Shown here: in pieces, positions 872 to 32,000 of the stretch | Numbering within the stretch: position 1 is the first letter of the stretch | Layout: the number at the start of each line of letters is the position of its first letter | NCBI RefSeq assembly: GCF_000146505.1 | Contig: NC_017448.1 | Coordinates: forward strand, 3,120,001-3,152,000 | Origin: Fibrobacter succinogenes subsp. succinogenes S85 | GTDB lineage: Bacteria; Fibrobacterota; Fibrobacteria; Fibrobacterales; Fibrobacteraceae | Length of the DNA stretch: 32,000 nt | Direction: 5' to 3' | The notes under the pieces: model-generated | Told to the model about the DNA's origin: nothing | Seen by the model: the letters and a program-made list of their open reading frames with translations, nothing else | Database searches by the model: none | Position numbers and translations under genes: made by a program

Positions 872-1094
872 ATGGGATAATTTGGTCTTTGGTCAGATTG
901 AATCTGAGGATTAGTGTTTCCAAAGGGACCCCATCTTTGAAAAGGGCCCTAGCTGTTTCTAGCTTTTCGGCTTCGGCCTTGTTGAGCTCGTCACGTACCT
1001 TTTGTGTTTCTGCATGGGCATCGGCAAGTCTTTTACGGAATACATCGCCGGCACTCACAAAACCATATTTCTGTCCAATGCTAACGAATGCCAT
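870..1094 (-). CDS. Small hypothetical protein (74 aa) with an HTH-like C-terminal segment
   Basis: The ATG is preceded by CAAGGAGTTAGAA, a good SD. The C-terminal GVPLETLILRFNLTKDQI looks like a helix-turn-helix. I recognise no family. Confidence 0.5.
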   Translation of the reverse strand: MAFVSIGQKYGFVSAGDVFRKRLADAHAETQKVRDELNKAEAEKLETARALFKDGVPLETLILRFNLTKDQIIP

Positions 1095-1313
1095 TTCTAA
1101 CTCCTTGAGTTGTTCTTCTGTGAGGTACTTTAAAGCTACATTCGTTATGGAAAATAATCAAGTAGGCCTATTGTTGGGCTTGGGGAGGGCTGATGATTAG
1201 GAAAAAACGATGGAATTTGTGTCTTTGATACAATGTCGAAGGATTTTTCCGGAACAGACCTTTATATCGAGGATGAGGAATAATCTATATTACAAGTAAT
1301 AAAGGAGCCCGTT

Positions 1314-2270
1314 ATGACATATACATTTTTGAAGCTTGCTGAAGAAGTTCTTGAAGAAGCCAAAAAGCGCGAGAACATCCAAGCACTTTCCCATGTGGAA
1401 ATATGGGAAAAGGCTGAAAAATATGGAATTCAAAACAAGTGTAGTTCCTCTGGTAAAACGCCTTGGCAATCCATCTGCGCTCAAATATATGTGGATATGA
1501 AGGATAACGCTAAAACTATTTTTGCAAAAATTGGTACGCGGCCTGTGCGTTTTGCTCTTAAGAAATATGTTGAAAATGGTGTAAAGATTACTGACATAGA
1601 ACAAAAAATAAAACAGCCTAAGACAATATTTTCGGAACGGGATTTACATCCGCTTTTGACGAAGTTTGTTTATTCGAATTCGCATTTTCATTGTTATGCA
1701 AAGACTATTTATCATGAGACTTCAGCCAAACATAAGATTGGGCGAAATCATTGGTTACATCCGGATTTGATGGCCGTCTATTTCCCGTTTGATTCGTATC
1801 AAACAGGAACACTGGATATAATTAAGTCTTTTTATGAGTCAAAAATGAAATTGTTCTCATTTGAGATGAAAAAAGAAATCACTAGCTCGACTCTTCGTGA
1901 GTATTATTTCCAAGCAGTTTCTAATTCTAGTTGGGCTAACGAAGGCTATTTGGTCGCTTTGAAATTTGATCAAGATGATGATTTTCGTGAAGAAATGCAA
2001 CGCCTTAACAATTCTTTCGGCATAGGCTTTATCCAACTCGACGCAATGAATGTGGAACAAAGTAGTGTTCTAATTCCTGCTAAAATCCATGAACAAATTG
2101 ATTGGGATTTTCTTGATCGTCTTATTGAGGAAAATCCTGATGTCAAGAATTTCGTCGACTCCATTAATGGGGATGTTCTGCTTCAAAAGGTAAAGAATAA
2201 GAACGAATATGATGAAATCTTCGATAACTCCAAGATGGAAAAGTGGATTAAGGACAAGGGAATTGAATAG
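1314..2270 (+). CDS. HARE-HTH N-terminal domain fused to a PD-(D/E)xK nuclease-like domain (Mrr/restriction-endonuclease-like)
   Basis: The SD AAAGGAG lies upstream of the ATG. The N-terminus (KTPWQSICAQIYVDMKDN...RPVRFAL) fits the HARE-HTH pattern found in RpoE-delta and restriction enzymes. Downstream are ERDLHPLL, HPDLMAVYF (D151) and FSFEMKK (E184-x-K186), then YYFQAVS, which together give an ordered E...PD...ExK...Q nuclease core. The gene sits in an AT-rich context. Confidence 0.6.
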   Translation: MTYTFLKLAEEVLEEAKKRENIQALSHVEIWEKAEKYGIQNKCSSSGKTPWQSICAQIYVDMKDNAKTIFAKIGTRPVRFALKKYVENGVKITDIEQKIKQPKTIFSERDLHPLLTKFVYSNSHFHCYAKTIYHETSAKHKIGRNHWLHPDLMAVYFPFDSYQTGTLDIIKSFYESKMKLFSFEMKKEITSSTLREYYFQAVSNSSWANEGYLVALKFDQDDDFREEMQRLNNSFGIGFIQLDAMNVEQSSVLIPAKIHEQIDWDFLDRLIEENPDVKNFVDSINGDVLLQKVKNKNEYDEIFDNSKMEKWIKDKGIE

Positions 2271-2318
2271 CGACTATTGTCTGACAAAAGTTAATTAGCT
2301 ATATTTGTTAATAACAAT

Positions 2319-2368
2319 TCCCACCGTGCCTCTTAACAATGCGTACCACGGTGGGACTTCGCATTTTT
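2319..2368 (+). terminator. Putative rho-independent terminator
   Basis: TCCCACCGTG (2319-2328) pairs with CACGGTGGGA (2347-2356) across an 18-nt loop, followed by CTTCGCATTTTT. Confidence 0.4.
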
Positions 2369-2484
2369 AGGCGTTGTCTTTGGTTTTGCGGTCGAAATTT
2401 TCGATTGCAAATTCTCTACCATGCTGGTGGAGTTTTTCGGTATGGTGCGAATGTAAAATTGCTCGGCAAAAATGTACAACCCTC

Positions 2485-2513
2485 TTGACGATAGTTTTCC
2501 GATAATCTATATT
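2485..2513 (+). promoter_or_regulatory. Sigma70-like promoter TTGACG-N17-TATATT
   Basis: TTGACG is at 2485-2490, followed by a 17-nt spacer and TATATT at 2508-2513. The predicted leader contains a hairpin at 2558-2585 (CCCCGC/GCGGGG) that abuts the SD GGAGGAG at 2584-2590. Confidence 0.35.
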
Positions 2514-2596
2514 TGGTGTACGGATGAGCAAATGTGTTGCTCTATAAACAACAAAAGCCCCGCTGTTTTCAGCATGTCTGCGGGGAGGAGTTAAAA

Positions 2597-3154
2597 ATGA
2601 AGAATGATGTGAAGAATGGTGGCGTCGGCATTTGGCTTGATGAAATTGTTCCTTGTCTCAAGGATACCGAAACTGGCGAAATCAAGGAAACGGTTGTATT
2701 TAAAATCGAAAGTCGTTCATTCCTGAAAAAATTCAACGAAAAGAACGGTTGGGGAATCAATTGGATTGAAATTCCCGATAATGTTGAGGTCTTTGCTTTA
2801 GCGCTAAAGGAAAATAACGAAATTCAGGGTTTTATCGGAGTAAAAAATGACAAGAATTCCGTGGCTGCATTTATCCATTGGGCTTGTACTGCTCCTCGTA
2901 ATAATAAGCGATTGTGTGGATCGCAAAAATACATTGGGGTAGGAGGACATCTATTTGCTATTGCTGCTGATAAATCAATTCAGTGGGGATATCAAGGCGC
3001 AATTCACGGCTTTGCCCTTAACAGAGAGCTACTTAATCACTATATTGAAGTATTAGGAGCCATATTTTTAGGGGCTTTGCACGAATACCAATTTTTCGTG
3101 AACGAAAACGCGGCTAAACATCTTTTGGAGACTTACACCTATGAATGGAACTAA
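2597..3154 (+). CDS. GNAT-like acyl-CoA N-acyltransferase fold protein (185 aa)
   Basis: I prefer the ATG at 2597 (SD GGAGGAG 7 nt upstream) to the track's GTG at 2534. The segment IQGFIGVKNDKNSVAAFIHWACTAP...KYIGVGGHLFAIAADKS resembles the GNAT beta4-alpha3 core. The assignment is by eye only. Confidence 0.5.
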   Translation: MKNDVKNGGVGIWLDEIVPCLKDTETGEIKETVVFKIESRSFLKKFNEKNGWGINWIEIPDNVEVFALALKENNEIQGFIGVKNDKNSVAAFIHWACTAPRNNKRLCGSQKYIGVGGHLFAIAADKSIQWGYQGAIHGFALNRELLNHYIEVLGAIFLGALHEYQFFVNENAAKHLLETYTYEWN

Positions 3155-9597: not shown

Positions 9598-11133
9598 TTA
9601 CTGAGCCTTCGGAATTTTACCTTCGTCCAGTTCCGGTCTCCAAACATCGGCATCGAAACCAGGCATCTTGGTAAGTTCCTTGCCACGGACGCAGAGGAAG
9701 AAACCGAGGATAGCGGCGTCGTGGAGTGCAATCACAAGAGCAGTCTTGTAATCAAGACCAAAGCCGAGCGGAGCGCCCTTGAGGTTTTCCGGGCTTACCC
9801 AGAGGATGTAATCTGCCGTAATGAACGTCATGAACATGCATGGGATAAGCGCAATCCAGAAGTTCTTCTTTTTGCTGCGGAGGTAAACCGTTGCCACGCA
9901 GAGGCTGCAAACGGCCATGAGCTGGTTGCTCCAGCTGAAGTAGTTCCACAAGATATTGAAACCTTCGGGGTTCAAGTTGCTCCAGAAGATAATCACAGCG
10001 CAGAGAGCGAACATCGGAATCGTGAGAATCAAACGGTTACGCACGGAGGTCTGTTCAAGGCCCGTAAGTTCAGCAATCGTAAGGCGGAGGCTGCGGAGGC
10101 TTGTGTCGCCACTTGTAATAGCAAGGATAATTACGCCCACGACCACGAGAATCGAAATCGGAGCCCAAGGAATCACGGTCGAAACGAGAACGCTCAAAAC
10201 CTTCACGCCCGAAGCGCCTGTCAAAAGTTCCGGCATCTGGTGGTAAATGAACATGCCACCTGCAGCCCAAATCATACCAATCAAACCTTCAATAATCATC
10301 ATGCCGTAGAACGTCTGGCGACCGGTCTTTTCGGTGACTTCAGTGCGTGCAACGAGCGGGCTTTGCGTGCTGTGGAATCCGCTGATGATGCCGCAAGCAA
10401 TCGTCACGAAGAGCATCGGGATGATCGGCTGGCCAGCCGGATGCTTATGGAAGTTGCTCATGATGTCTGCAAAGCAGAATTCATCGAGGACGTTCAAGTT
10501 CGGGATGATGCCCACGAAAATAGCGAGGGAGGCGAGAATCAAGAGGGCGCCAAAAATCGGGTAGATGCGGCCGATAATCTTGTCAATCGGGAAGAAGGTG
10601 CTAATGAAGTAATAGGCAAAAATGCAGACAACGGCAATCCAGAAAAGAGTCGGAGAAACGTGGCTGCCGACGAGAATCGGGGTGTTCACGAGTGCTGCCG
10701 GAGTCGTGGTGAACACGGCGCCAACGAGAATGAGTGCTACGGAAATGAGTGTCATCACAAGCTTTGCCGGACCCTTGCCCAAGAACTTACGGGAGAGTGC
10801 CGGAACGTTGTAACCGTTATTGCGCATGCTGATCATGCCACTGAAGTAATCGTGCACTGCGCCGCCGAGGACGTTTCCAAGCGGGAGCAAAATGAACACG
10901 ATGGCACCAAACTTGATGCCGAGAATCACGCCGATCACAGGGCCAATGCCTGCAATGTTCAAAAGCTGAATGAGAACGTTTTTCCAGTGCGGCATCGGGA
11001 CGCGGTCAACGCCATCCGGGTTTGCGAGTGCCGGAGTCTTGCGGTCATCGGGACCGAACACGCGTTCGACGAACTTGCCGTAGGTGAAATATCCAAGGAT
11101 GAGGATTGCAACACCAATTAGGAATGTTATCAT
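9598..11133 (-). CDS. cstA: Carbon starvation protein A family transporter
   Basis: 511 aa and polytopic. The N-terminus ILILGYFTYGKFVERVFGPDDRKTPA is the characteristic CstA start. Confidence 0.8.
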   Translation of the reverse strand: MITFLIGVAILILGYFTYGKFVERVFGPDDRKTPALANPDGVDRVPMPHWKNVLIQLLNIAGIGPVIGVILGIKFGAIVFILLPLGNVLGGAVHDYFSGMISMRNNGYNVPALSRKFLGKGPAKLVMTLISVALILVGAVFTTTPAALVNTPILVGSHVSPTLFWIAVVCIFAYYFISTFFPIDKIIGRIYPIFGALLILASLAIFVGIIPNLNVLDEFCFADIMSNFHKHPAGQPIIPMLFVTIACGIISGFHSTQSPLVARTEVTEKTGRQTFYGMMIIEGLIGMIWAAGGMFIYHQMPELLTGASGVKVLSVLVSTVIPWAPISILVVVGVIILAITSGDTSLRSLRLTIAELTGLEQTSVRNRLILTIPMFALCAVIIFWSNLNPEGFNILWNYFSWSNQLMAVCSLCVATVYLRSKKKNFWIALIPCMFMTFITADYILWVSPENLKGAPLGFGLDYKTALVIALHDAAILGFFLCVRGKELTKMPGFDADVWRPELDEGKIPKAQ

Positions 11134-20385: not shown

Positions 20386-20501
20386 TTTTTTATTGTAAAG
20401 ATTGTGATTTTGGACAAAAATAGAAACCTAAATTGCGATTTTTCCCCTAAATAACATATATTATAAAACTACAAGAATTGCATGTTGAGGGGCGCAGTAT
20501 T

Positions 20502-21990
20502 ATGAACACATCCCGCCATACAAAAATACGGAGCGTTACGGTCCTCGTCGTTGCTGCATTGTTGCTTGAACTGACGACCGCAGTGCAGTACATTTCTACA
20601 CGCCGAGCCATTACCGCCCAAATTAAGGAAATGGCTAAGCAAGACCTTACTTCTGCAAATCGAACTTTTGAAGTCAAGGAAATTGCCGAAGCAGCCATTG
20701 CGGCTGTGCTGCCCGAAGTAGAACGTCTAATCGATACACAACAGCAAGATTCATTGCATATGGCGTTGCAACGAGTGGTTGCGAACCATCCTGAAATTGT
20801 CGGCGTCGATTTTGCCTATCGTGTGGGGAGTGATGGCCTTCGCGATGGGTATTTTACGTTTAGGGACGATGCGACCAACGAAATAAAAGACACCGTGATA
20901 GGATTTGACTATACGGAACGCACTTGGTACCGCGAGGGCTTGCATGGCAACGGTTCCTGGAGCGAACCGTACATGAGCCGCTATTACGTGGCGCTGATGT
21001 CTACATTTTCACGTCCTGTCCACGATCCTCAAGGTCGCGTCATTGCCGTTATTGGCGCCGATGTTCCGATGCGTGAACTCTCTTCGATGGCTGTGCAGCT
21101 GTACGATAACCAGCAGCGCTCGCTCATTCCTGTCATCATTCTTCAGCTTGTCGGCCTCTTTGTGCTTGGCTTTATCATGTACCGCAGCATCATCAGCGTC
21201 CGTAAGTTAAGCAAAGTCAGTGCCGAAAAAGACCTGATTAACAGGGAACTTGGCATTGCAAATGCGATCCAGACGGCGATGCTTCCGCCACCGCTGCCCG
21301 AAAGCGAATTCCTGAATATCGTTGGTAGTCAGGTCCCGGCAAAACAAGTGGGTGGCGATTTTTATGATTATTTTGTGCGTGACGGCAAGCTGTTCTTCAA
21401 TATTGGCGATGTCTGTGGCAAGGGAATCCCCGCTGCACTTGTCATGTCAATGACGCAGGCCGTGTTCCGCACGATTGCAACTAAAGTCGATGATCCATCT
21501 CACATTGTGATGGGAATGAACACGATGGCCAGTCGTGGAAATACGACGGGAATGTTTGCAACGCTTTTTGTTGGTGTGCTAGACCTTGCAACGGGGCGCC
21601 TGAGCTACTGCAATGCCGGCCATGAAAAGCCCATTATCATTACTGGACGTAATATGCGATATCTCGATGTTACCGCAAATATCCCTATCGGGGTCATGGA
21701 AGAAAAAAAAATACAATATCCAGGAATCGGTCATCGCTGCGGGCGATATGATCTTGCTCTATACGGATGGCCTCACCGAAGCCATGAACGCAAATGGAAA
21801 GCTGTTTGGATTGAAGCGCGTTGAAGAAACGATTTGTGGCGGTGGAAAAACTGGAGGCAATAGTGAACTCTCCGCATTTGCGGAACCGCAGCAACTGCTG
21901 GATACGATGTCACATGCGGTGTCCGAGTTTGTGAATGGCGCGGAGCAGAGCGATGACCTTACCATGCTTGTGATAAAGTACAAAGGGTAA
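20502..21990 (+). pseudogene. Cache-sensor / TM / PP2C (SpoIIE/RsbU-type) phosphatase interrupted by a +1 frameshift in an A9 run
   Basis: The Cache-like segment is ERTWYREG...VIAVIGADVPMRELS. The PP2C motifs are VGGDFYDY and GDVCGKGIPAAL in frame 0 and MILLYTDGLTEA...SDDLTMLVI in frame +1. The two frames meet at the A9 run at 21703-21711, and A8 would give a continuous ...GVMEEKKYNIQES.... Confidence 0.75.
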
Positions 21991-22007
21991 GGGATGAAAA
22001 TAAAAAT

Positions 22008-22034
22008 GCCTAAAATAGGGAAGCTATTTTAGGC
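22008..22034. terminator. Hairpin between convergent genes at the left edge of the AT-rich island
   Basis: GCCTAAAATA (22008-22017), loop GGGAAGC, TATTTTAGGC (22025-22034). Confidence 0.45.
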
Positions 22035-22052
22035 AAGGCGAGGTGTTGCCGT

Positions 22053-22316
22053 TTAAAACCAGTAGCGCTTCATCTTTTTCATGAACGCTGCGTCTACTGG
22101 CCATCCGGAAGCGTCTGGGATGACAGAGTCAATCGCGCAGTAAGGGCATAAAGCTGTCAGGTCTTCCCTGTCAATGCAGAAGTCTTCTACTTCTGATGCG
22201 GGGAATGTTTTGCAGCAAAAGAAGCAGCCGCACATCTGGGATCTTTTTACGAGCCCTCTGTTCTGGAAGGAAGCGGCGTGTGCCTTTTTGATAATCTCAG
22301 GCATGTTTCTAGTCAT
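22053..22316 (-). CDS. Small Cys-rich protein (87 aa) with a CxC...CC...CPxC pattern
   Basis: I prefer the ATG at 22316 (SD AGAGGA 7 nt upstream) to the track's TTG at 22364. MCGCFFCCKTF...TALCPYCAIDSVIP suggests a zinc-binding module. I cannot name the family with confidence. Confidence 0.5.
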   Translation of the reverse strand: MTRNMPEIIKKAHAASFQNRGLVKRSQMCGCFFCCKTFPASEVEDFCIDREDLTALCPYCAIDSVIPDASGWPVDAAFMKKMKRYWF

Positions 22317-22356: not shown

Positions 22357-22611
22357 TTAGGCAATGCTGTTTTGAATCTTGCCGGATTGGATAAGAAATT
22401 CTCTTACGTAGCGATAGTAGTCTCTACAGAAGTTTGAAAAAGCTCTGGAATCGCTTGGTGTGCATGGAATAGAGAATATCTTATTTGCACCTTCTTCGAT
22501 GTGTCGCAAGATGACGTGCTTGCCGTGACGTGCGATTTCCCATTTTTTGGACTTTAAGATGTTTAGGACGAAATCGCGGATGTCTTTGTTGTTGGAAATG
22601 TAAGGCTGCAT
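22357..22611 (-). CDS. Small protein (84 aa), possibly HicA-like
   Basis: The SD AGGAGA lies 6 nt upstream. KWEIARHGKHVILRHIEEGANKIFSIPCTPSDSRA loosely follows the HicA pattern G-x-H...hxh...hP (from memory). The functional call is weak. Confidence 0.4.
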   Translation of the reverse strand: MQPYISNNKDIRDFVLNILKSKKWEIARHGKHVILRHIEEGANKIFSIPCTPSDSRAFSNFCRDYYRYVREFLIQSGKIQNSIA

Positions 22612-22652: not shown

Positions 22653-22668
22653 AGCGAAATGCGTGCCA
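22653..22668 (-). promoter_or_regulatory. Sigma54-like -24/-12 element
   Basis: The minus strand reads TGGCACGCATTTCGCT against the consensus TGGCACG-N4-TTGCW. Spacing between GG and GC is correct and there is one mismatch in the -12 box. It lies about 40 nt upstream of the ATG at 22611. Confidence 0.2.
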
Positions 22669-22799: not shown

Positions 22800-24590
22800 T
22801 TATTTCAAATTACTTTTAAAAGGCTCCCATTTTCCATGAAGTTTCATATCTTCGTCTTTGAAGAACCATTTTATGGTATTCCCGTTTCTGCTCCAACGAC
22901 TGTGACAGTTCCGGCACTCGAATAAGAAGTTATTTTCGGTAGAGCCCTTCGCCCTAGTAGCGTCAGCTTTACAGCAGGGACATTTTTGGATGAGGCTTAT
23001 TAGGGCGTTCCCGGTCTTGAGAATTTCTATGTCTTCATCGCGGTTTTTGCGATAGGTACTCAGGTCCCTTTTCTGGATTCTGTCAGTATGCTCTCTTTTA
23101 TCAACCTGCTTCTTGAATTCATTGTCGTCGTAACGATCGAGCAGGTATTTACCGTCTAGCATATTGGGGACAAGTTCCTTTATAAATCTATTCTGGGGCA
23201 CTTTGAACGGATACTGGCACATGAGCATTGCCCAAATCCACTGGAAAATAATCCTTTGGATTAGGAGTTTTGGGAAGATGGATTGCGGTGCTATGCCCAG
23301 TACCATATAGGCTTCGTTGTTTTTGAACATATCATGCAATATGGTAAAGTTGTCTTCGTCTTCGCTCAGGTAGGGGTTACATTGTGGATATACAAGGACC
23401 GATACATCGCCTGTATAGGGGTTAGACTCATTAAGGACGTTGTCGATATAGCAGCTTGTGGGTTTTGAGGTAACGAAAACAAAGCGCAGCTTTTTGCCGT
23501 TTGCTTCTAGTTCAAGGCTGTTGTAGGGTGTTTCTCTATATTCCGGCTTGATATAGTTCCAGCAATCCCAATCCATGTTTGTGGTTCTGAAATCTTCGAT
23601 GCACCTCTTGACGAATTCTTTTTCGTTATGCAGCAGCAGGACCTGTTCTTCTTTTTTTTCTGCCTTAGAAAGAGTTTTGATACGTGCACGCTTGACCTCT
23701 TTCTGTATCTTGGGTAAGTACCGGTAATGCTGGTTGTTCATCAGGACGTTTGTCATGATGTCGTGATTGATGTCCACTTCAACGTTGGGAAAGGTCTTAA
23801 GGTTACTGAACAGTAGCGTATTCCAAAAGGAGGATATGACGCGCTGCAGGTATTTTAGGAAATCGATAGTCCGCTTCAGCAGTTCTCTATTTTCCTTGAC
23901 TTTCTCGATGCTGTATTCCTTGAGTAGGGAACTCAGTTCCGATTCCATAGATAAGTAATCTACATAGCTGACTTCTTGGTAATACAACTCTATTTCATTA
24001 TAGGCGTTGTCGATATTCTTGAGTCTCTGCAATCGCTGGTTTATTAATGAAATTAGTATTTTGCAGAGTGTGAACATCAAGCGGTTTTCGTACGTTTCCC
24101 ATTTGTCGTCCCTGACTAAAGAAAGCAGACGCTGTGGGTGGACTCCGACAAACGAACGGTTTCTCCAGTCCTCGGAATGCCCTGCCAGATATTCAAGGGC
24201 GCGAGATGCGAATTTTTTGACACGGCTAGTTGGCTGCTTTATTTCCTCTTCCTTCAGGTCAAGAATTGGTCTGGCTACGGCCTCCTTTAGGTGAGTGAGA
24301 GGGTCGTTTCGCTTAATTTGGTCAATGTCTTCTTGTAGGAACGTTTCTAGCTGGTTGCGATCAAGGTCGTCGGGATTGTTGCACAGCGAAAAGAACGAAT
24401 CCTTGTCTTCGTCAAGCAGCCGAAATGCGGCAAGGATATCGTTGGTGATAGGCTCGGATTCCTTGACTTCGATGTCGTCAAAGTGGTAGATGACATTCCC
24501 CTTTTGCGCCTCCTCTCTGCTTAGGGCATAAAGGCCTCCACAATCGGGGTTGTCAATCTTGACATCCTTTTGCAAGAAGATATCGAACAT
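22800..24590 (-). CDS. McrC-like partner protein with a C-terminal 4-Cys zinc ribbon (CnuC-like candidate)
   Basis: 596 aa. Its start overlaps the upstream stop (TAATG). ETYENRLMFTLCKIL (aa 165-179) resembles the E. coli McrC segment DTLANRIIKSTLAIL as I recall it. MLDGKYLL (aa 477-484) resembles the McrC IVDAKYY (D/E)xK strand. CPCC-x18-CRNC lies at 22905-22982. Confidence 0.6.
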   Translation of the reverse strand: MFDIFLQKDVKIDNPDCGGLYALSREEAQKGNVIYHFDDIEVKESEPITNDILAAFRLLDEDKDSFFSLCNNPDDLDRNQLETFLQEDIDQIKRNDPLTHLKEAVARPILDLKEEEIKQPTSRVKKFASRALEYLAGHSEDWRNRSFVGVHPQRLLSLVRDDKWETYENRLMFTLCKILISLINQRLQRLKNIDNAYNEIELYYQEVSYVDYLSMESELSSLLKEYSIEKVKENRELLKRTIDFLKYLQRVISSFWNTLLFSNLKTFPNVEVDINHDIMTNVLMNNQHYRYLPKIQKEVKRARIKTLSKAEKKEEQVLLLHNEKEFVKRCIEDFRTTNMDWDCWNYIKPEYRETPYNSLELEANGKKLRFVFVTSKPTSCYIDNVLNESNPYTGDVSVLVYPQCNPYLSEDEDNFTILHDMFKNNEAYMVLGIAPQSIFPKLLIQRIIFQWIWAMLMCQYPFKVPQNRFIKELVPNMLDGKYLLDRYDDNEFKKQVDKREHTDRIQKRDLSTYRKNRDEDIEILKTGNALISLIQKCPCCKADATRAKGSTENNFLFECRNCHSRWSRNGNTIKWFFKDEDMKLHGKWEPFKSNLK

Positions 24591-27037
24591 TAGGCGCCTC
24601 GTTTCTTTGCTGCGATGTCCTGGTCAATGAGCCTGATGGTTGCCGAGTTGTCGTCTAGTTTTATATTTTTTTGAATTTCTTCTTTAAGTTTTACTAGAGA
24701 ATCTTCCTGCACGCCAAATAGACCCGTGATTTTGCCTTTTCGTACAATCTTTGTGGCAAGGAGATGGTCTAGAGCGAGTTCTTTGGACCCTCCTGCGGCA
24801 CAGACCACAGGAACGAAATTCCTGATTTGCCTTTCGAGACGGTTTCCGAAAGATACATCAAATTCCGACTTTAGTACATCCTTGAGGGAATGCATTTTTT
24901 CAGTGACCCAGGCAGCTTGCTGTTCTCCTTCATCTGATTCCTGTGCTTCGACAAATGCGTTTCTCAAATCCTCGGCGGACCAGTGGGCCGCACCTTGTCT
25001 TATCTTTTGGTAGGACGGTTTTTGAGTATTGCGCTCCATCACCATGACGTGGGCGCGGTCGTACGTCTTGTCGGCGAATTCCATGGTGGTTTCGTCATGG
25101 TTTGCGGTGCCGATAAACCACACGTTGGGAGGAACAATGATTTTTTCATTTTGGAGGTATTTGGGCCAACGGTCTGATTCCATAGTTTCTTTGGGCATTC
25201 CCGAAAGCAGCTCAACTGTTAGGGGATCAAATATGGAGCTATTTGCTTGCTCCATTGCTGAAATGAAGTCTGCAAAATATTGTTCGGGATGTGACAAGTT
25301 CATTTCGTCGAGAATTAGGAAAAATAGGCGGTTTTTGAACTGAGGCGTAGATGCGGTATAGAGCCCCTTGGAGAAGGGTTTTTCGTAGAACTTCTTTTCG
25401 AAGGCATTGTAGTAACCCAGCAAATCCTGGTTGTCGCGCCATCCGGCCTGAACAGGGATTATGCAGCTACAGGAACCGTTATCCTTCTCTGACTTGCTAC
25501 CATCGGAATTATCTCCAACGATAGAAGCGAACGCTTGTGCTAATTTGGTCTTGCCTGTTCCGCTAATACCCTGTAGTAAAATGAGGCGGCTCATGGCTAG
25601 GCCACCAACAAACAGTTGCAGAGTTTCGGGTGTATAGAAAAGGTGGGGCTGATATTGCGTCAACTGGTAGCCGACTGCATTCACGAATTCTTTAAGGTCA
25701 CCGGAATTTTGGGTGAAACTGATGTATTCGCGGTTGCATCTGCTATCGATGTTCTTGAATTCAGCAAAAATGTCCTTATTCTGGTCTTTTGCGGTAAGCT
25801 CATCGAGCTCTTTACGCAATTGGTTTTGTGCTTCTTTGAGAGCCGCGTTGTGCGTTTCCAAAGTTTTATTTAAAGCAATTAAACCTTCTGTGTCTACAAT
25901 TTTTCTTCGATAATCCATTACCTGTTTAGAGAGCGCATTCTTTTCGGCGATGGCTGATTCGCATTGGTCTTTGAAACTCTGCAAAGCATCTTCCATCTCC
26001 TGCTGGTGTTCCGGGCTCCAGGCAGAATTAAGTTCCAACTTGAGAGTTGCATTTTTATTGCGAAGATTGTTTATCAACTCCTTGGCCTCTTCGGCACTCA
26101 TCCCATCGAGCTGTGACTTGATATCCTTGTAGCTCTTTAATTGCTTTTGCAGGTTCTTATTTTCTTCATTCAAGTCTTTAATTTGATTTTCGAAGGATGC
26201 CTTGCTTTGTGCGAGTCTGTTATCATACTCAAGTTGAATCTCTTCCCTGATTTCATCAAATGCCTTTTTCCTGTTTTCATATTCCGTTTTCTCAAGAATG
26301 CATTTTTCTTGCTCTTTGCTTAAAGAGGCGAGTTTGTTTTTGTAATCTTCAGATTGCTTTTGCAGCGAGTTTCTTGTTGATTCCAGATCTTTATTGAGTT
26401 TTTCGGTAATCTCATTTTTCCATTTGGTCTCGTTTGCGATAAAGCCTGCATCGGCTTCGGCTTCTCTTTGCTTAATCTGAGCTTTAAGCCCTTCTAGGCG
26501 TTCGTCTTCTTTTTTGTTTGCGTCTTCTTTTATCTGAGCCTTGCCTTCTCTTTCGGTAACATCGTCCTCGCGTTTTTTTGCTTCACCTTCTCTTTCGTTA
26601 AGTTTGTTTTCGCGTTTATTTAGTCCATCTTCTCTGTCTTTAAGCTCGCTTTCCTTGTCTTCTTGCTCTTTAGATGTTTGTCCTAAATCTGCAATTTTGG
26701 TATCATAACCTTTTTTGGCTTTGTCGCAATCTTCCTTGGCAATCTTGTACAAGCCAATTACATCGTTGAGCTCATTTTGCAGAGCCTTAAGAGTTTCTTT
26801 TTCTTCGTCGGAAAGCTTGTTCTCTGAAGGAATTAGATTTTTGATTTTATCCAATATAGATTCTTTGGGCATGTTGATTTCTGGCGAAGCGTCGTCAACA
26901 TTAGATATGGCGGGAGCACTTTCAACAGAGGCCTTTATCGGGGTGAAAATGCTGTTCATGTCGTCTATGCTTATGGGGGCATGACGCTGAGGTGTAGAAG
27001 GTTGGTTTTTGTTCTTGTTTTTATTTTTCTTGCTCAT
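24590..27037 (-). CDS. Coiled-coil McrB-family AAA+ GTPase (CnuB-like candidate)
   Basis: 815 aa. It has a K/N-rich N-terminus, and aa ~75-430 are E/K/Q/L-rich with almost no Pro, predicting a coiled coil. Walker A is GISGTGKT (25547-25570), Walker B is LILDEMN (25298-25318), and VWFIGTANHDETT matches the McrB GTMNTAD-type specificity motif. Confidence 0.8.
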   Translation of the reverse strand: MSKKNKNKNKNQPSTPQRHAPISIDDMNSIFTPIKASVESAPAISNVDDASPEINMPKESILDKIKNLIPSENKLSDEEKETLKALQNELNDVIGLYKIAKEDCDKAKKGYDTKIADLGQTSKEQEDKESELKDREDGLNKRENKLNEREGEAKKREDDVTEREGKAQIKEDANKKEDERLEGLKAQIKQREAEADAGFIANETKWKNEITEKLNKDLESTRNSLQKQSEDYKNKLASLSKEQEKCILEKTEYENRKKAFDEIREEIQLEYDNRLAQSKASFENQIKDLNEENKNLQKQLKSYKDIKSQLDGMSAEEAKELINNLRNKNATLKLELNSAWSPEHQQEMEDALQSFKDQCESAIAEKNALSKQVMDYRRKIVDTEGLIALNKTLETHNAALKEAQNQLRKELDELTAKDQNKDIFAEFKNIDSRCNREYISFTQNSGDLKEFVNAVGYQLTQYQPHLFYTPETLQLFVGGLAMSRLILLQGISGTGKTKLAQAFASIVGDNSDGSKSEKDNGSCSCIIPVQAGWRDNQDLLGYYNAFEKKFYEKPFSKGLYTASTPQFKNRLFFLILDEMNLSHPEQYFADFISAMEQANSSIFDPLTVELLSGMPKETMESDRWPKYLQNEKIIVPPNVWFIGTANHDETTMEFADKTYDRAHVMVMERNTQKPSYQKIRQGAAHWSAEDLRNAFVEAQESDEGEQQAAWVTEKMHSLKDVLKSEFDVSFGNRLERQIRNFVPVVCAAGGSKELALDHLLATKIVRKGKITGLFGVQEDSLVKLKEEIQKNIKLDDNSATIRLIDQDIAAKKRGA

Positions 27038-28482
27038 TTGTATGCCTCGTGTAAAATATCTAACTGTTTTTCAATTCTGTTGTAAATATCAATGTAGGGG
27101 TATGGAATAGGTTTTCTGTTTGTGTTAAAATGACCGTAGGTGTTGCGCGTGTCCACCAGTTCAAGAATGAATTTAAGGTCGTCGCTCAATGACCCGTTTT
27201 TTTCCAGTCTTGCCATAAACCAAGCTAGTGGGTTTTGGGGATGATAAAGGTAAAAGATAAGATGCCTAATGAGTAGTGACTTAAGAGAAGGCTTCCTTCG
27301 AGTCATACTCCCCCATACATCATCGTTTGTCAATTTTTTCTTGATGTCTTCGTCCAGTTCTAGATTGCGCATCTTTAGGCCGCCTTCCAAGTAGTAATGG
27401 CGATCTAAATCTCTTTTGAGAGCAACCTTTTTGAGCTCATCGTTAAAGGGCGTGTTTTTTGTTCTAAGGATGCTTTCGTACATGTTTTGCATTCTAGTAA
27501 GGAATGCATCGCCTAGATCAAGCGAGTTGTCTGTATCGTCGGTAAGAAGGTCTTTTAAAACAAAGAATCTGCAAATTTCAATAATAATGTCTTCTTCAAA
27601 ATGTGGGTATCTGCCTTGAATACGATCTTGAAGCGTAATGGGAATCTCTATTGATTTAATTCCTAAAAAAGCTCCCATTTTTTCATTTTGTTCAAGGGCT
27701 GTATCTAGTTCGTTTTTGAGGAACTCCATTGGAATTTTGGACTGTTCTTCTAGCATGTCAATGCATTGAAAGTCTTCGCCTTCAGAAATTTTTTTGACCT
27801 TGACAAGCAGAAAATTGCATATTTCAGGTTCTTGGTTCCGCTTCTCAATGGAAATTATTTTATCGGGTTGCTCAATGTAGCTCGCCTTGATGTCATTGTA
27901 GTCGGACAAGGCAATATCGCAGTCGATTTGCTGGTATTCCTTCCACATATTGTAAATGTCTTCTTCCGAAATGTCTGTTGAGTTTTCTCTAACTTTGTTG
28001 GTGCGTGGGTACACAATAAACGGCTTGATGTTGCAGGGCATACCCTTGGACCCGCCGGCAATAGTGATTCCTTTTTCGTTTTGTTGGTAATCAATGGACG
28101 TGAGTTCCCCATTCATTAGGGGGTGTGGAATTAATTGTCCTGTCAACATGGATTGTAACACTACGATTCGACTTTTTTTGATTGTGGTCTCCGTGCAGGA
28201 GACTCCTTCTGGTATGTGCCACTTGTCAATCCCTTTTGTGACTTTCTGCTTGAGGTCGTGTTCAAGAATATAGCGAATTAGGGCCTCATCTAGATTGGTC
28301 AATTCATGGAGCTCTTGGACAGTCTTGTCTCCGGTCAGGAGAAGGTTTATGATTAGATCCGAAAAAAAGTTTTCGGGGATATTTGCTTCTGCTACCAGAA
28401 TATCCCATACAATGACAGGCAAGGTGAAATAATCACCCTTGGAGAGTTCACTTGAATTGCAAAATAAATTAGCAATTTCCAT
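27034..28482 (-). CDS. Protein with a C-terminal HEPN-type Rx4H motif (putative RNase)
   Basis: I prefer the ATG at 28482 (SD GAGGA, 1 nt after the helicase stop) to the track's TTG at 28503. LELVDTRNTYGHFN (R..H at 27130-27147) lies in a helical C-terminal region, and the N-terminus looks wHTH-like (TVQELHELTNLDEALIRYIL). The stop overlaps the next start (ATGA). Confidence 0.6.
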   Translation of the reverse strand: MEIANLFCNSSELSKGDYFTLPVIVWDILVAEANIPENFFSDLIINLLLTGDKTVQELHELTNLDEALIRYILEHDLKQKVTKGIDKWHIPEGVSCTETTIKKSRIVVLQSMLTGQLIPHPLMNGELTSIDYQQNEKGITIAGGSKGMPCNIKPFIVYPRTNKVRENSTDISEEDIYNMWKEYQQIDCDIALSDYNDIKASYIEQPDKIISIEKRNQEPEICNFLLVKVKKISEGEDFQCIDMLEEQSKIPMEFLKNELDTALEQNEKMGAFLGIKSIEIPITLQDRIQGRYPHFEEDIIIEICRFFVLKDLLTDDTDNSLDLGDAFLTRMQNMYESILRTKNTPFNDELKKVALKRDLDRHYYLEGGLKMRNLELDEDIKKKLTNDDVWGSMTRRKPSLKSLLIRHLIFYLYHPQNPLAWFMARLEKNGSLSDDLKFILELVDTRNTYGHFNTNRKPIPYPYIDIYNRIEKQLDILHEAYK

Positions 28483-28483
28483 A

Positions 28484-31400
28484 TTATTTTTCCTCGTCTG
28501 CAAGTTTAATAAATTCTTTTAAAGCGGGAACTTCCTCTTGTGCTTTTTCTGTTTCATACATTTTTCTATTTCCTACAATCACAAGGAGTTTCTTTTGACG
28601 AGAGAAAGCGACGTTTAGACGGTTTTCTGATTTGAGAAAGCCGAAGTTGTTCCTGTCGTTGCTGCGAACAACAGAGAAGAATACGATATCAAATTGCCGC
28701 CCTTGGAACGCGTCGATTGATCCGATTTCTAGATGCTTGTTGTCAATTTTTTTCTTGAGTTCTGCATCTGACTTAGCAATTTTATCAATGAGTCGTGTTT
28801 GTGCACTGTATGAGGCGATAACACCGATAGTTTCGTCAGTTTCCTTGATAATTTCCTTTATGCGCTTAATAATTAGCTCGGCTTCAGCCTCGTTCGTTTT
28901 GCTTATTTTCCCAGATTCCTTGCTATCGACATTTTCCCAAACCGCACACTTGCAATCTCCATTTTTCTTAGTGTATCTTGAAACATGATGAATGCAGTCA
29001 TTGGGATTTTTGCCGGTTTGAATATGTGTCTCGTCTCCGTAAAAATTTCGACTTACAAAGTCGCTTAATTTTTGCGGCATACGATATTGAGTATCGAGAG
29101 TTACCGTGCGTACAATGCCATCATTTCGTTCTGTTTTTAAATAATCCCATAAAGATTCGAATAGAGACTTTTCCATAAAGCCCTTCAATTCTTCGAACCG
29201 TTCCCTAGAATCATTGCTGCATTCCATTTGCTCTAGGATATCTTGATCAACAAGTTGGGGGAGTTGCTTGTGGTCGCCAACTAGTATAACTTTTTTTCGG
29301 GCTAAGGTGATGGGTATGAATAGGTCAAGAGGATTTGCTCGAGCAGCTTCATCGATGATGACGTAATCAAACTCAAAGTTTTTCTTACCAAGAAGCCTTA
29401 CAAAAGATTCACTTTTTGATTGCTGTACTGTTGCCGCATAGGTCATGGCGTAACGGAGCATTGCGTTTCTGATGGATTTGAATCCGACATTTTCCTTATA
29501 GCTGTTTAGAACAATCAGTTTTTGTAGGTCGGTTTGCCTGATGCGTTCTCTGATGTTGGGCTCAATGGTCGTGTCGATATAATCCTTTAGAATTGTGAAC
29601 AGCTGATTGTCAAACGAATCTGTTGGATTGGGAACCATTTGCTCAATGCATTTGTTTCTGAGTTCTTCAACCCAGTCAAGGTCTTCTTGGCTAGGTGTCG
29701 AATTCGCTAGTTTCTTTAGCTGATCGTACCCTTTTTCCAAGGCGTAACAATTCAAGGAATCCTTGCGCAAATCGTAGTATTCCAACACATGCTCAATCAT
29801 TCTCTTGCCGTCGTCATTGAATCCTGTGCTGGTTGTTCTTAATCCCATTAGGCATTGGTAGAATTTATTGTTTATTTGCTTGACTTGGAATTTCTTTTTG
29901 AATTCCTTAAGAGTATCCACTTCTGACGGAGAAAGGATGCTGTTTGTGACGGCAAGATTGATGATTTCTTGTAGTAGGTTTCGTATTTCGTAAGAAGAGC
30001 TTGCAGCGCTTAGTGCATTAAGGCTTATTTGCAATTTTTCGTATTCGATGTATTGCGTGTCGGACTGTAACTTATTTATCTGTTCATCAATTTTTTTTGC
30101 GGTATCTTCTTGCCATTTCTGGAGTCCTCTGAAGATTTGTTCCTTGTCCTTTTGTTCCCCATAAAAGCGAAATACGGGAAGTCCCCAAATTGAGCTTCCG
30201 TCAGCCACATTATCAACAGCTACGTGTTGAAAACTTGTCAATAATATGCTAGGCATTTTTTCGGGATGCTTGGGGTCTATCGATTGTAGATATTTTTGTA
30301 ATGCGTTGATAACGCTTGTCTTTCCTGTTCCGGGAGGTCCTTGGATGAGGGCTATGTCTGGTGTGTTCAGACAAACCTTTAGTGCCCTTTTTTGTGCTTC
30401 ATTGGGTCTTCTGTTACCGAATGCCGCTTCAATTTTTAGATCGTTCAGCCTTTTGGGGACGGCTGCGGAGCCGAAGGAGGGGAGCGTTGTTTTATTTAAA
30501 ATGTCTGTAATAGATGCAATAGGAATGTTGCGTGTTCGGATGTTTTCTAGTGCTGCTGTTCTGCGTTTGGATGCTATAGACCATGGTTTAAAATCTATGG
30601 CGAATCCCTCAAGTTCTAGTTTTTCGCTATTGTCATATTTAGGTTTTCTTTCGCCCCATTTCCAGGAAACTGTTCTTGTTTTCTCGTCAATCCGTTCGTC
30701 GCAAATATTGTAACTCTTACGTTTCGAGAAAACGTAGATGGAATAAGAATTCTTTTGATTGGCGTTTAGCTGATCGTATATGTTCTTGAAATTTTCTATT
30801 TCTTCGGATTTGTTTTGAAGTGTTGCGCTGCAGTTTTCTCCTTTGGCAGTTATCTTTTCAATGCGAAGAATGCCAGACTGGATTTTATAATCTTCCAGCA
30901 TCTGCGCGTCAACCTGATTATACTTTTCCCAAAGGTTTATGATGGAGTTTGGGTCTGCGGCTTGTTTAGCTAATTGTGCATTCAAAATGGGATCGCTTAC
31001 GATGGCTTCCTGTTCTGATACGAATCGAATGTGCGCAATCCCTTTTTGTACATTCAATTTTTTTTGAGGAGACTTTTTTAGATTGCTGACAAAGAGATAC
31101 TCCTTGCCGTCTACCTTCTTACTTTCGATATTTGCAACATAATTGCATCCGAGCCATCCTCCTTCCAAGTTTGAGGTATTGCTCAGAATTCTAAAGAATA
31201 AGTACGAATTTTCAGTGGTTTGGAAAAGAAACTCTTTTTTGAACCATTCTAGAGCCTGTTCTGTTTCTTTAAAACCATATTTCTTAGTGACTTCTATGAG
31301 CCTGTAGGTTGGAATGACGATATTGCATGTCTGTTCGGTGTTTCCTATAATGGTCGGTCCGCCAAAATCCCACTTGTTTAGGGTCACCTCGTATTTTTTA

Positions 31401-31630
31401 TCTGCTTGTTTTACGGAATCAACAATGTAGAGTGACTCCTGATTGTATGGAAGTGAATTTTGTGGCCAGAATATCCTTTCTGGATGATTGTAGTTTTTGA
31501 AATATCCGCTTGGGGTGAATTCCAAAACATCGTGTTTGGCGATTTCGAATTTCCCGTCATTGTCAAATATGGCGTCTATGACTTGTGCCGAAGAATTGCA
31601 TGCAATGATATTTAGTTGCTCGTTATTCAT
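28484..31630 (-). CDS. SF1B Upf1/DNA2-like helicase (AAA_11/AAA_12 type) with a roughly 420-aa uncharacterised N-terminal region (CnuH-like candidate)
   Basis: 1048 aa. Motif I is GPPGTGKT (30317-30340), followed by II VIIDEAARA, III VILVGDHKQLPQ, IV LDTQYRMPQ, V SIDAFQGRQFDIVFFSVVRSN and VI RLNVAFSRQKKLLVIVG. An insertion of about 320 aa lies between motifs I and II. Confidence 0.85.
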   Translation of the reverse strand: MNNEQLNIIACNSSAQVIDAIFDNDGKFEIAKHDVLEFTPSGYFKNYNHPERIFWPQNSLPYNQESLYIVDSVKQADKKYEVTLNKWDFGGPTIIGNTEQTCNIVIPTYRLIEVTKKYGFKETEQALEWFKKEFLFQTTENSYLFFRILSNTSNLEGGWLGCNYVANIESKKVDGKEYLFVSNLKKSPQKKLNVQKGIAHIRFVSEQEAIVSDPILNAQLAKQAADPNSIINLWEKYNQVDAQMLEDYKIQSGILRIEKITAKGENCSATLQNKSEEIENFKNIYDQLNANQKNSYSIYVFSKRKSYNICDERIDEKTRTVSWKWGERKPKYDNSEKLELEGFAIDFKPWSIASKRRTAALENIRTRNIPIASITDILNKTTLPSFGSAAVPKRLNDLKIEAAFGNRRPNEAQKRALKVCLNTPDIALIQGPPGTGKTSVINALQKYLQSIDPKHPEKMPSILLTSFQHVAVDNVADGSSIWGLPVFRFYGEQKDKEQIFRGLQKWQEDTAKKIDEQINKLQSDTQYIEYEKLQISLNALSAASSSYEIRNLLQEIINLAVTNSILSPSEVDTLKEFKKKFQVKQINNKFYQCLMGLRTTSTGFNDDGKRMIEHVLEYYDLRKDSLNCYALEKGYDQLKKLANSTPSQEDLDWVEELRNKCIEQMVPNPTDSFDNQLFTILKDYIDTTIEPNIRERIRQTDLQKLIVLNSYKENVGFKSIRNAMLRYAMTYAATVQQSKSESFVRLLGKKNFEFDYVIIDEAARANPLDLFIPITLARKKVILVGDHKQLPQLVDQDILEQMECSNDSRERFEELKGFMEKSLFESLWDYLKTERNDGIVRTVTLDTQYRMPQKLSDFVSRNFYGDETHIQTGKNPNDCIHHVSRYTKKNGDCKCAVWENVDSKESGKISKTNEAEAELIIKRIKEIIKETDETIGVIASYSAQTRLIDKIAKSDAELKKKIDNKHLEIGSIDAFQGRQFDIVFFSVVRSNDRNNFGFLKSENRLNVAFSRQKKLLVIVGNRKMYETEKAQEEVPALKEFIKLADEEK

Positions 31631-32000
31631 TTTTCACCCCAATATTTGAACAGGATGACGCTCCTGAATTTCAAGGAATCGTTTTCTTCGGAATCATCAT
31701 GTATAATTTTTGTTCGTGTGTATTCGGGGAAAAGGATTTGGTACTGTTTGCCTTCCTTGACGTCGATAAGGAGGGAAATCCCCTTTTTCAGGGTGCAGCT
31801 CTTTGTGTTTTTTTCTTTGGGAATGTTTAATGTTACCTTCAGTTCCTTCTGATCGGTCAGTAGTATGCTCAGTTGCTGCTTGGATACGTTGAATGATGCT
31901 TCGATGTTTGCCGATTTGGTTTCTGCTATGGGAATGTTCATTAGGGTAGATGTATCCTCTAGCAGGTACGCGGGATGGCTGAAAACTGTGTCTTGAATTT
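31627..32000 (-). CDS. Beta-rich hypothetical ORF, possibly truncated at its 5-prime end by the window edge
   Basis: The frame stays open from the ATG at 31941 to position 32000 (...IQDTVFSHPAYLLEDTSTL-MNIP...), so the true start may lie outside the window. The stop overlaps the helicase ATG (ATGA at 31627-31630). Confidence 0.5.
   Translation of the reverse strand, partial: IQDTVFSHPAYLLEDTSTLMNIPIAETKSANIEASFNVSKQQLSILLTDQKELKVTLNIPKEKNTKSCTLKKGISLLIDVKEGKQYQILFPEYTRTKIIHDDSEENDSLKFRSVILFKYWGEK

Follow-up and report, generated by a model that had tools for sequence, protein, structure and literature searches.

A probable Type II CoCoNuT operon at a variable defence site of Fibrobacter succinogenes S85

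Gene content, junctions and control region

The stretch of Fibrobacter succinogenes subsp. succinogenes S85 DNA analysed here (the window, 32,000 nt; coordinates are its positions 1–32,000 unless a locus is named) ends in a block of minus-strand genes, at 22800–32000, that holds the distal two-thirds of the operon of a probable Type II CoCoNuT, a relative of the McrBC systems. Four complete open reading frames (ORFs) in the ORF listing, all on the minus strand, occupy 28484–31630, 27034–28503, 24590–27037 and 22800–24590. The 1048-aa protein has an exact match in S85 (CP001792.1), as well as in many rumen assemblies. The corresponding region of the source record CP001792.1 is referred to as locus L001 (window coordinate = 41631 − L001 coordinate). 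The genes of the block are, from its upstream end:

31627–32000, minus strand: 3' end of the TerY-P Ser/Thr kinase gene (residues about 358–481 of 481); the gene leaves the window, its frame being open to base 32000
28484–31630, minus strand: cnuH, predicted UPF1-like helicase of superfamily 1B, 1048 aa (AAA_11/AAA_12 and MkoA matches, AlphaFold2 model and Foldseek)
27034–28482, minus strand: cnuE, 482 aa, with a putative region like a winged helix-turn-helix (wHTH) at its N-terminus and a HEPN-type motif (invariant R and H, sub-threshold profiles)
24590–27037, minus strand: cnuB, 815 aa, predicted coiled coil and McrB-like NxD GTPase (profile against Escherichia coli McrB, hhalign)
22800–24590, minus strand: cnuC, 596 aa, putative McrC-family partner with a zinc ribbon (DUF2357 in relatives, Cys pairs)

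The cnuE frame can be read as 489 aa from a TTG at 28503 or as 482 aa from an ATG at 28482; the latter is the start chosen by gene callers and seen in all CnuE homologues. With this start, every junction of the block is tight. The kinase stop overlaps the cnuH start as ATGA (31627–31630), cnuE starts one base after cnuH (TAATATG, 28480–28486), cnuE and cnuB overlap as ATGA (27034–27037), and cnuB and cnuC meet at TAATG (24588–24592), all on the minus strand. These are exactly the four junctions that a first-pass annotation, made from the letters alone, had listed. That annotation had counted five coupled ORFs. The four complete genes stand; the fifth, a 104-aa ORF at 31627–31941, was rejected as an independent gene, its frame being open to base 32000 and its product being, in CP001792.1, the last 104 residues of the 481-aa kinase. 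The unit does run past the window edge, as had been stated: genes for a PP2C phosphatase and a VWA protein lie further upstream, the frames of these two and of the kinase overlap or abut directly 5' of cnuH, and all seven genes, from the VWA gene to cnuC, are translationally coupled.

Base composition sets the block apart. Its GC content is 0.416 against about 0.50 in the rest of the window (the backbone), and its GC content at third codon positions (GC3) is 0.41–0.55 against 0.63–0.73. The contrast is genuine and moderate. Three 60-nt lines counted by hand in the first-pass annotation gave 30%, 40% and 57% GC, and these counts are exact (0.300 at 27061–27120, 0.400 at 23521–23580 and 0.567 at 9661–9720); as selected lines, they exaggerate the difference.

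Upstream of the window edge, the VWA protein (236 aa; Pfam VWA 7e-12), the PP2C phosphatase (241 aa; PP2C_2 1e-32) and the Ser/Thr kinase (481 aa, L001 8559–10004; Pkinase 1.2e-14) make up a TerY-P triad, which is kept in the homologous loci L007, L008, L010 and L011. After its catalytic domain, the kinase carries a zinc ribbon (CKNC319...CPFC335) just beyond the window edge. The sequence TGGCAC-N5-TTGCA is the canonical -24/-12 element recognized by sigma-54, and one exact copy, the single exact match within 23 kb, lies in a 200-bp intergenic region, 81 bp 5' of the VWA start codon. Divergently oriented upstream is a gene for a 472-aa RtcR-like protein, for which PADLOC gives a full-length match to RtcR_PspF1--CARF_AAA_HTH (1.6e-173) and which also matches NCBIfam RtcR (1.2e-55) and Pfam Sigma54_activat (8e-38). 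The operon is accordingly read as standing behind a perfect predicted sigma-54 promoter, beside a putative RtcR/PspF1-type activator with CARF, AAA and helix-turn-helix (HTH) parts. The predicted layout is rtcR-like gene (divergent), sigma-54 promoter, VWA, PP2C, Ser/Thr kinase with zinc ribbon, cnuH, cnuE, cnuB and cnuC.

Two further sequence features were recorded near the ends of this arrangement. A sigma-54-like element with one mismatch (TGGCACGCATTTCGCT) lies at 22653–22668 (minus strand), in the 188-bp gap between cnuC and a HicA-like gene; it could be a chance match, 0.75 matches being expected per 23 kb when up to one mismatch is allowed. A tandem pair of 33-nt units (GTGTAAATTTC...CACATTTTTTT, 76% identity; L001 5354–5419) lies outside the window, where it separates an upstream HicA-like gene from the RtcR-like gene's 3' end.

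The four Cnu proteins

CnuB carries a Walker A motif, GISGTGKT (K496 encoded at 25550–25552), Walker B residues D577–E578, and the sequence GTANHD at residues 643–648, with N646-H647-D648-E649 encoded at 25091–25102. By itself the window protein gives a weak McrB match among PDB sequences (E 0.5) and no Pfam model above threshold. A profile was built that combines its C-terminal 386 residues with six homologues, from Alteromonas, Agitococcus, Arsukibacterium, a gammaproteobacterial metagenome-assembled genome (MAG) and two Phycisphaerales MAGs. Its best solved relatives are E. coli McrB structures (6hz4, 6ut6 and 7vsr; 4e-8), with the next AAA+ proteins at 1e-3, and hhalign aligns the GTPase with E. 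coli McrB at 97.2% probability (E 3.8e-11). These searches place the ATPase closest to McrB, a point that the first-pass annotation had set beforehand as a check on its reading. The motifs GISGTGKT, LDEMNLS and GTANHDETT are invariant in the family, and for the last of them this holds across 7 sequences from 3 phyla. HMMER aligns the Asn of GTANHD with that of McrB NTAD, and the Asp stands one residue earlier than in NTAD; the signature is of the NxD(E) form.

Residues 60–430 of CnuB are 34–62% charged and contain almost no Pro or Gly, and their 3.5-residue hydrophobic periodicity is marked (z=5.1, against z=1.1 in the GTPase domain). This region gives just weak matches to the coiled coils of SMC, JetC and seryl-tRNA synthetase. 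The protein matches the PADLOC candidate model PDC-M26A (2e-38). Taken together, CnuB is predicted to be a McrB-type NxD GTPase with a coiled coil of about 370 aa instead of a DNA reader.

Within the coiled coil, cnuB contains a 42-nt tandem duplication (26570–26653, minus strand; 76% identity): ESELKDREDGLNKR / ENKLNEREGEAKKR. This repeat shows apparent growth of the coiled coil through internal duplication. In another assembly (SRR018587; L003 14594–18829), the cnuB call is 791 aa long and cnuC falls into two pieces of 360 and 168 aa; these differences are either assembly errors or natural inactivating variants.

For CnuC, an exhaustive profile search gathered 711 relatives with a conserved core at residues about 95–330, and DUF2357 (PF09823) is carried by 42 of the 58 relatives sampled (best 1e-9). 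Its zinc ribbon consists of CPCC (537–540) and CRNC (559–562), encoded at 22905–22982; conservation of the four Cys is at least 90% in the 58 relatives. Against solved structures, neither the sequence by itself nor profiles of 21 and of 58 sequences gave more than zinc-ribbon noise; the weak PDB matches are the ribbons of eIF2beta, L37Ae and S27e. AlphaFold2 models residues 310–596 confidently, with a per-residue confidence score (pLDDT) of 80–94 in the C-terminal half, and shows a four-strand zinc ribbon and a confident strand-helix (alpha/beta) domain at about 350–460. Foldseek found no significant match of this model in the PDB (E at least 0.2), and the non-significant list is rich in PD-(D/E)xK nucleases: Bax1, Nt.BspD6I, Can2, Hachiman HamA, BamHI, XisH and McrC (6hz4_M). 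Across 21 sequences, no D, E or K is invariant in residues 340–470; because the alpha/beta domain has no invariant acidic or lysine residue, a catalytic nuclease motif is not conserved in CnuC.

CnuE contains a single RNTYGH motif, encoded at 27130–27147, about 30 aa from its C-terminus, so close that a second HEPN domain would not fit. Both R and H are invariant in 12 family members (from Fibrobacter, Alteromonas, Agitococcus, Arsukibacterium and a gammaproteobacterial MAG). The spacing is RxxxxH in the window protein and in two of four distant homologues, and R-x5-H in the Alteromonas and gammaproteobacterial-MAG copies. Among the 12 members, HEPN_Apea appears below threshold in seven and HEPN_RiboL-PSP in one (1e-3), and wHTH-PRTase_assc matches the N-terminus of three (1.6e-6), the window protein not being one of them. 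The CnuE profile found no match among PDB sequences, and a homologue search with CnuE returned close Fibrobacter relatives only. The RxxxxH of CnuE appears to be the only conserved nuclease-type motif of the system.

CnuH matches Pfam AAA_11 (9e-30) and AAA_12 (2e-43), and its best PADLOC match is MkoA (3.5e-87). Its Walker A motif, GPPGTGKT at residues 431–438, is invariant, with K437 encoded at 30320–30322. The AlphaFold2 model (mean pLDDT 84) has SETX, UPF1, IGHMBP2, Sen1 and DNA2 as top Foldseek matches (E 4e-28 to 1e-22; 4e-28 to 3e-24 for the first three). In the model, a beta domain (15–106) is followed by two helices and a sheet (108–205, beta-rich at 136–205), stalk helices with a beta-barrel (206–365), an all-helical insertion of about 230 residues (496–727) between Walker A and the rest of RecA1, and then RecA2. 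As modelled, CnuH would be a UPF1-like helicase with a large helical insertion. The positions that the first-pass annotation had given for the key motifs (helicase K437, GTPase K496, GTANHD and RNTYGH) were all right, and the PADLOC scan that it had proposed returned matches for CnuH (MkoA), the kinase (N-terminal part of MkoA), CnuB (PDC-M26A), the HicA-like gene and the RtcR-like gene (RtcR_PspF1--CARF_AAA_HTH).

Placement among McrBC-related systems

CoCoNuTs are defined by a McrB-like GTPase with NxD, a fused coiled coil, a homologue of McrC and closely linked HEPN or other nucleases, and are predicted to target RNA (Bell et al. 2024, eLife 13:RP94800, PMC11090510). The NxD signature is the McrB NxxD shortened, usually followed by E or D; the McrC nuclease is often lost or inactivated, and DUF2357 is the McrC N-terminal domain (PMC11090510). 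In Type II, CnuH combines an SmpB-like OB domain, a RelE/colicin D-like (RTL) domain and an OB/stalk region with a UPF1-like helicase in which Walker A is followed by a helical insertion. CnuE of this type joins an elongated wHTH and a coiled coil to a single HEPN domain bearing RxxxxH, CnuB consists of a coiled coil and the GTPase only, and CnuC has a short IG-like domain, DUF2357, an inactivated PD-(D/E)xK domain and a ribbon often cut to two Cys motifs. Type II systems nearly always come with a TerY-P triad, in which the kinase has a zinc ribbon at its end, and frequently, though not obligatorily, with an RtcR-like CARF-ATPase-HTH gene (PMC11090510).

The Fibrobacter locus shares with this type its gene content, gene order and overlapping frames, the coiled-coil-only CnuB with an NxD-E GTPase, a DUF2357-family CnuC with two Cys pairs and without the catalytic PD-(D/E)xK residues, the single-motif CnuE, the CnuH insertion after Walker A, the TerY-P module with a kinase-linked zinc ribbon and the RtcR-like neighbour. 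The same seven-gene order, with matching protein sizes, occurs in Alteromonas, Arsukibacterium and Phycisphaerales, and likewise in the gammaproteobacterial MAG, which also has the RtcR-like gene. Classed from gene content and sequence features, the locus is very probably a complete Type II CoCoNuT. The derived McrBC or CoCoNuT identity proposed in the first-pass annotation is borne out by the UPF1-like helicase, the HEPN motif, the coiled-coil NxD GTPase and the McrC-family zinc-ribbon partner. The locus is not new in kind; it is a clean, ordinary instance of a published type, and has probably been counted already in the 2024 census (PMC11090510).

Several observations weigh against this assignment. 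The RtcR-like gene is divergent here and co-directional in the published type (PMC11090510). For the window CnuC itself, neither Pfam, PADLOC nor the PDB sequences gave a match, and a comparison with E. coli McrC by hhalign was negative; its putative membership of the DUF2357 McrC family is reached through transitive homology and gene position only. Residues 1–172 of its AlphaFold2 model have a pLDDT below 50 and form two short strands only, so that the expected IG-like domain is not visible. The HEPN assignment of CnuE, a tentative one, rests on the motif and on sub-threshold profiles, and for the N-terminal domains of CnuH the identities as SmpB-like and RelE-like are putative. The detailed mechanism set out below is a published prediction drawn in part by analogy, and would be less certain than the Type II assignment.

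The first-pass annotation had suggested an undescribed subtype, on the grounds of a separate wHTH and HEPN subunit, no PLD domain and a degenerate zinc-ribbon McrC. Novelty of this kind is unsupported because these features are the published definition of Type II: each of the 'unusual' traits is diagnostic of that type in PMC11090510. What could still speak for a new subtype, or for Type III-A instead of Type II, is that, compared with most relatives, the CnuC N-terminal region is short by about 30 residues and is poorly modelled, that the RtcR-like gene is divergent, a sigma-54 promoter of its own lying in the intergenic region, and that Fibrobacterota are not mentioned in the main text of PMC11090510, which stresses Pseudomonadota and Bacillota. 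Set against this, gene order and protein sizes fit the gammaproteobacterial loci. Type III-A has two HEPN domains in CnuE and an Hsp70/HEAT CnuC, and PLD is a trait of Type III-C and Mokosh (PMC11090510). In the Fibrobacter locus, Pfam searches gave no match to an Hsp70-like or HEAT domain in the 596-aa, zinc-ribbon CnuC and no HTH match in CnuB, and CnuE has one HEPN motif. Type III-A was rejected on these grounds, and we hold the whole alternative, new subtype or III-A, to be very improbable. Apart from the points already named, the locus departs from the published type in having HicA-like, not BrnT-like, flanking genes.

CnuB is homologous to E. coli McrB, its partner comes from a McrC-type family, and the locus has no methyltransferase, as expected for Type IV; one could thus picture a conventional DNA-cutting, McrBC-like enzyme that merely lies beside a helicase. 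The two do share the AAA+ core, Walker A and B, a sensor Asn in the same alignment column (6hz4, 6ut6 and 7vsr) and a partner gene immediately downstream with an overlapping start. However, the hallmarks of canonical McrBC, namely NxxD, a DNA reader and a catalytic PD-(D/E)xK, were not found here: the signature is NxD, a coiled coil replaces the N-terminal DNA-binding domain of McrB, and CnuC belongs to a family without conserved catalytic residues and lacks detectable similarity to E. coli McrC. The locus also includes a kinase module, and its coupling to a UPF1-like helicase and a HEPN-motif protein is conserved across phyla. A conventional Type IV enzyme is extremely improbable.

The strong MkoA match also raised the possibility of a Mokosh system (MkoA/MkoB, MkoC). 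CnuH matches MkoA, and the kinase matches the N-terminal part of MkoA (3e-9), and by sequence MkoA looks like a fusion of the kinase and helicase genes that are neighbours here. In Fibrobacter, in contrast, kinase and helicase are separate genes and McrB-like and McrC-like genes are present. No protein of the locus matched a PLD nuclease in Pfam or PADLOC, and for lack of this nuclease the Mokosh reading was rejected.

The first-pass annotation knew of no experimental characterization of these systems, a statement that is now out of date. Obs, a seven-gene Type II CoCoNuT of Pseudomonas aeruginosa PMM16, is reported to protect against PP7 and LeviOr01, which are RNA phages, and the DNA phage MPK7 (2026 preprint, bioRxiv 10.64898/2026.04.06.716636). 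Both systems have seven genes; they are likened by description, Obs having been shown by phage assay and the Fibrobacter locus being known from its genes. The protection given by Obs supports a defence role for Type II, and says nothing on mechanism.

A variable genomic site and the predicted function

Downstream of cnuC, the same strand carries two small genes, followed at 22007–22035 by a strong terminator-like hairpin, the sole one found on this strand by a terminator scan:

22357–22611, minus strand: HicA-like small gene, 188 bp downstream of cnuC (PADLOC HicA-like 2.9e-12)
22053–22316, minus strand: Cys-rich ORF, 87 aa (103 aa from an upstream TTG, start 22364), without a family match

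Next to them lies a gene for a SpoIIE/dCache phosphatase, and this adjoining gene served as the anchor for a survey of the site in 45 orthologous rumen metagenome contigs. In L026, L027 and L056 the site is empty, the phosphatase gene directly adjoining the flavin reductase gene that forms the other-side flank in S85. Elsewhere it holds different cargo. L025 (4731–10309) and L017 (11595–17174) carry the prokaryotic viperin pVip (1.4e-88), PDC-S01 (8e-170) and an 809-aa protein without an assigned identity. L060 (563–7209) carries an AriA/OLD/GajA-like ATPase and a MkoA-like helicase between flanks 99–100% identical to those of S85, and L020 and L023 (L023 5711–12459) carry a divergent VWA-PP2C-kinase-CnuH-like set, 29–41% identical and in the opposite orientation. 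Because orthologous sites are empty or filled with other defence genes, the CoCoNuT island is dispensable, exchangeable cargo of a defence hot spot. The neighbourhood comparison thereby agrees with the expectation of the first-pass annotation that the locus would not be a strictly conserved core-genome cluster.

The HicA-like gene is kept at 99% identity where the CoCoNuT has been replaced, and is probably a separate module of the hot spot, outside the CoCoNuT. A second HicA-like paralogue (L001 5034–5279, outside the window; 56% identity, E 1e-33) has the same orientation, so that two such paralogues bracket the RtcR-like gene and the CoCoNuT module, and a HicA-like gene also accompanies the alternative cargos. 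This suggests that the HicA-like genes belong to the framework of the hot spot or act as recombination anchors. No convincing DNA direct repeats marking the island ends were found. The 87-aa Cys-rich ORF, which matched nothing in Pfam, NCBIfam or PADLOC, is 100% identical and again alongside the HicA-like gene in L020 and L023, and may be an unrecognized partner or antitoxin of the HicA-like protein.

Two observations concern other parts of the window. The SpoIIE/dCache PP2C phosphatase gene (20478–21990, plus strand) is frameshifted in S85, where it is read as 448 aa and an overlapping 125-aa frame, and intact (495–498 aa) in the rumen contigs L016, L017, L022, L023 and L025; the split reflects either a pseudogene or an error in sequencing. 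At 1001–3000, a second patch of low GC (0.38) encodes a HARE-HTH protein (1314–2270; Pfam 1.2e-10) and a 206-aa protein for which no family match was found, and may be another horizontally acquired piece.

How the system would work can be sketched from Bell et al. 2024 and from analogy with RtcR, McrBC, UPF1 and HEPN RNases. The CARF domain of the activator would sense an RNA-damage signal, such as 2',3'-cyclic phosphate ends, and the RtcR-like activator would then turn on the operon through sigma-54. The TerY-P triad of kinase, phosphatase and VWA protein may set the activity threshold via phosphorylation. CnuH would load and translocate on RNA, possibly at the ribosome via its OB-like and RelE-like N-terminal domains, carrying CnuE, whose HEPN domain would cut the RNA delivered in this way. 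A CnuB hexamer with CnuC may provide GTP-driven assembly or translocation and target binding, with the coiled coils joining the CnuB/CnuC half to the CnuH/CnuE half. The predicted outcome would be the restriction of viral RNA or, failing that, growth arrest by cleavage of host RNA, and the HEPN products could feed back on the CARF sensor.

The same components could be read as an RtcR-controlled module for RNA damage or translation stress, serving the surveillance of host RNA and not antiviral defence. An RtcR-like regulator with a sigma-54 promoter is also the arrangement of the rtcBA RNA-repair operon, and UPF1, SETX and IGHMBP2, which belong to the helicase family, are enzymes of RNA surveillance. 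However, the locus is dispensable and is swapped with bona fide defence genes at the same site, its GC and GC3 lie below the backbone, and a homologous seven-gene system protected against phages. A surveillance role in place of defence is quite improbable, and the two roles are not mutually exclusive.

For a Type II CoCoNuT in Fibrobacter, one further possibility concerns the clade as a whole. It may form a compact variant of Type II, in which CnuC has lost the IG-like domain and in which one sigma-54 promoter and a divergent RtcR/PspF1-type CARF activator control an exchangeable cassette between HicA-like paralogues; we consider this conceivable, if unlikely. If true, it would offer a small, sharply bounded model in which to test the proposed feedback loop leading from HEPN cleavage through cyclic-phosphate ends and CARF sensing to CoCoNuT transcription.

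The hot spot between the flavin reductase and SpoIIE-type phosphatase genes could be mined for other defence systems of Fibrobacter. CoCoNuTs form a large branch of the McrBC systems that has hardly been studied and is predicted to restrict RNA, and the Fibrobacter locus combines seven coupled genes, a clear predicted sigma-54 promoter, an RtcR-like sensor-activator, a cultivable rumen host and natural alleles with an empty site or alternative cargo. It could be used to test the published predictions that the HEPN subunit targets RNA and that induction runs through CARF and sigma-54.

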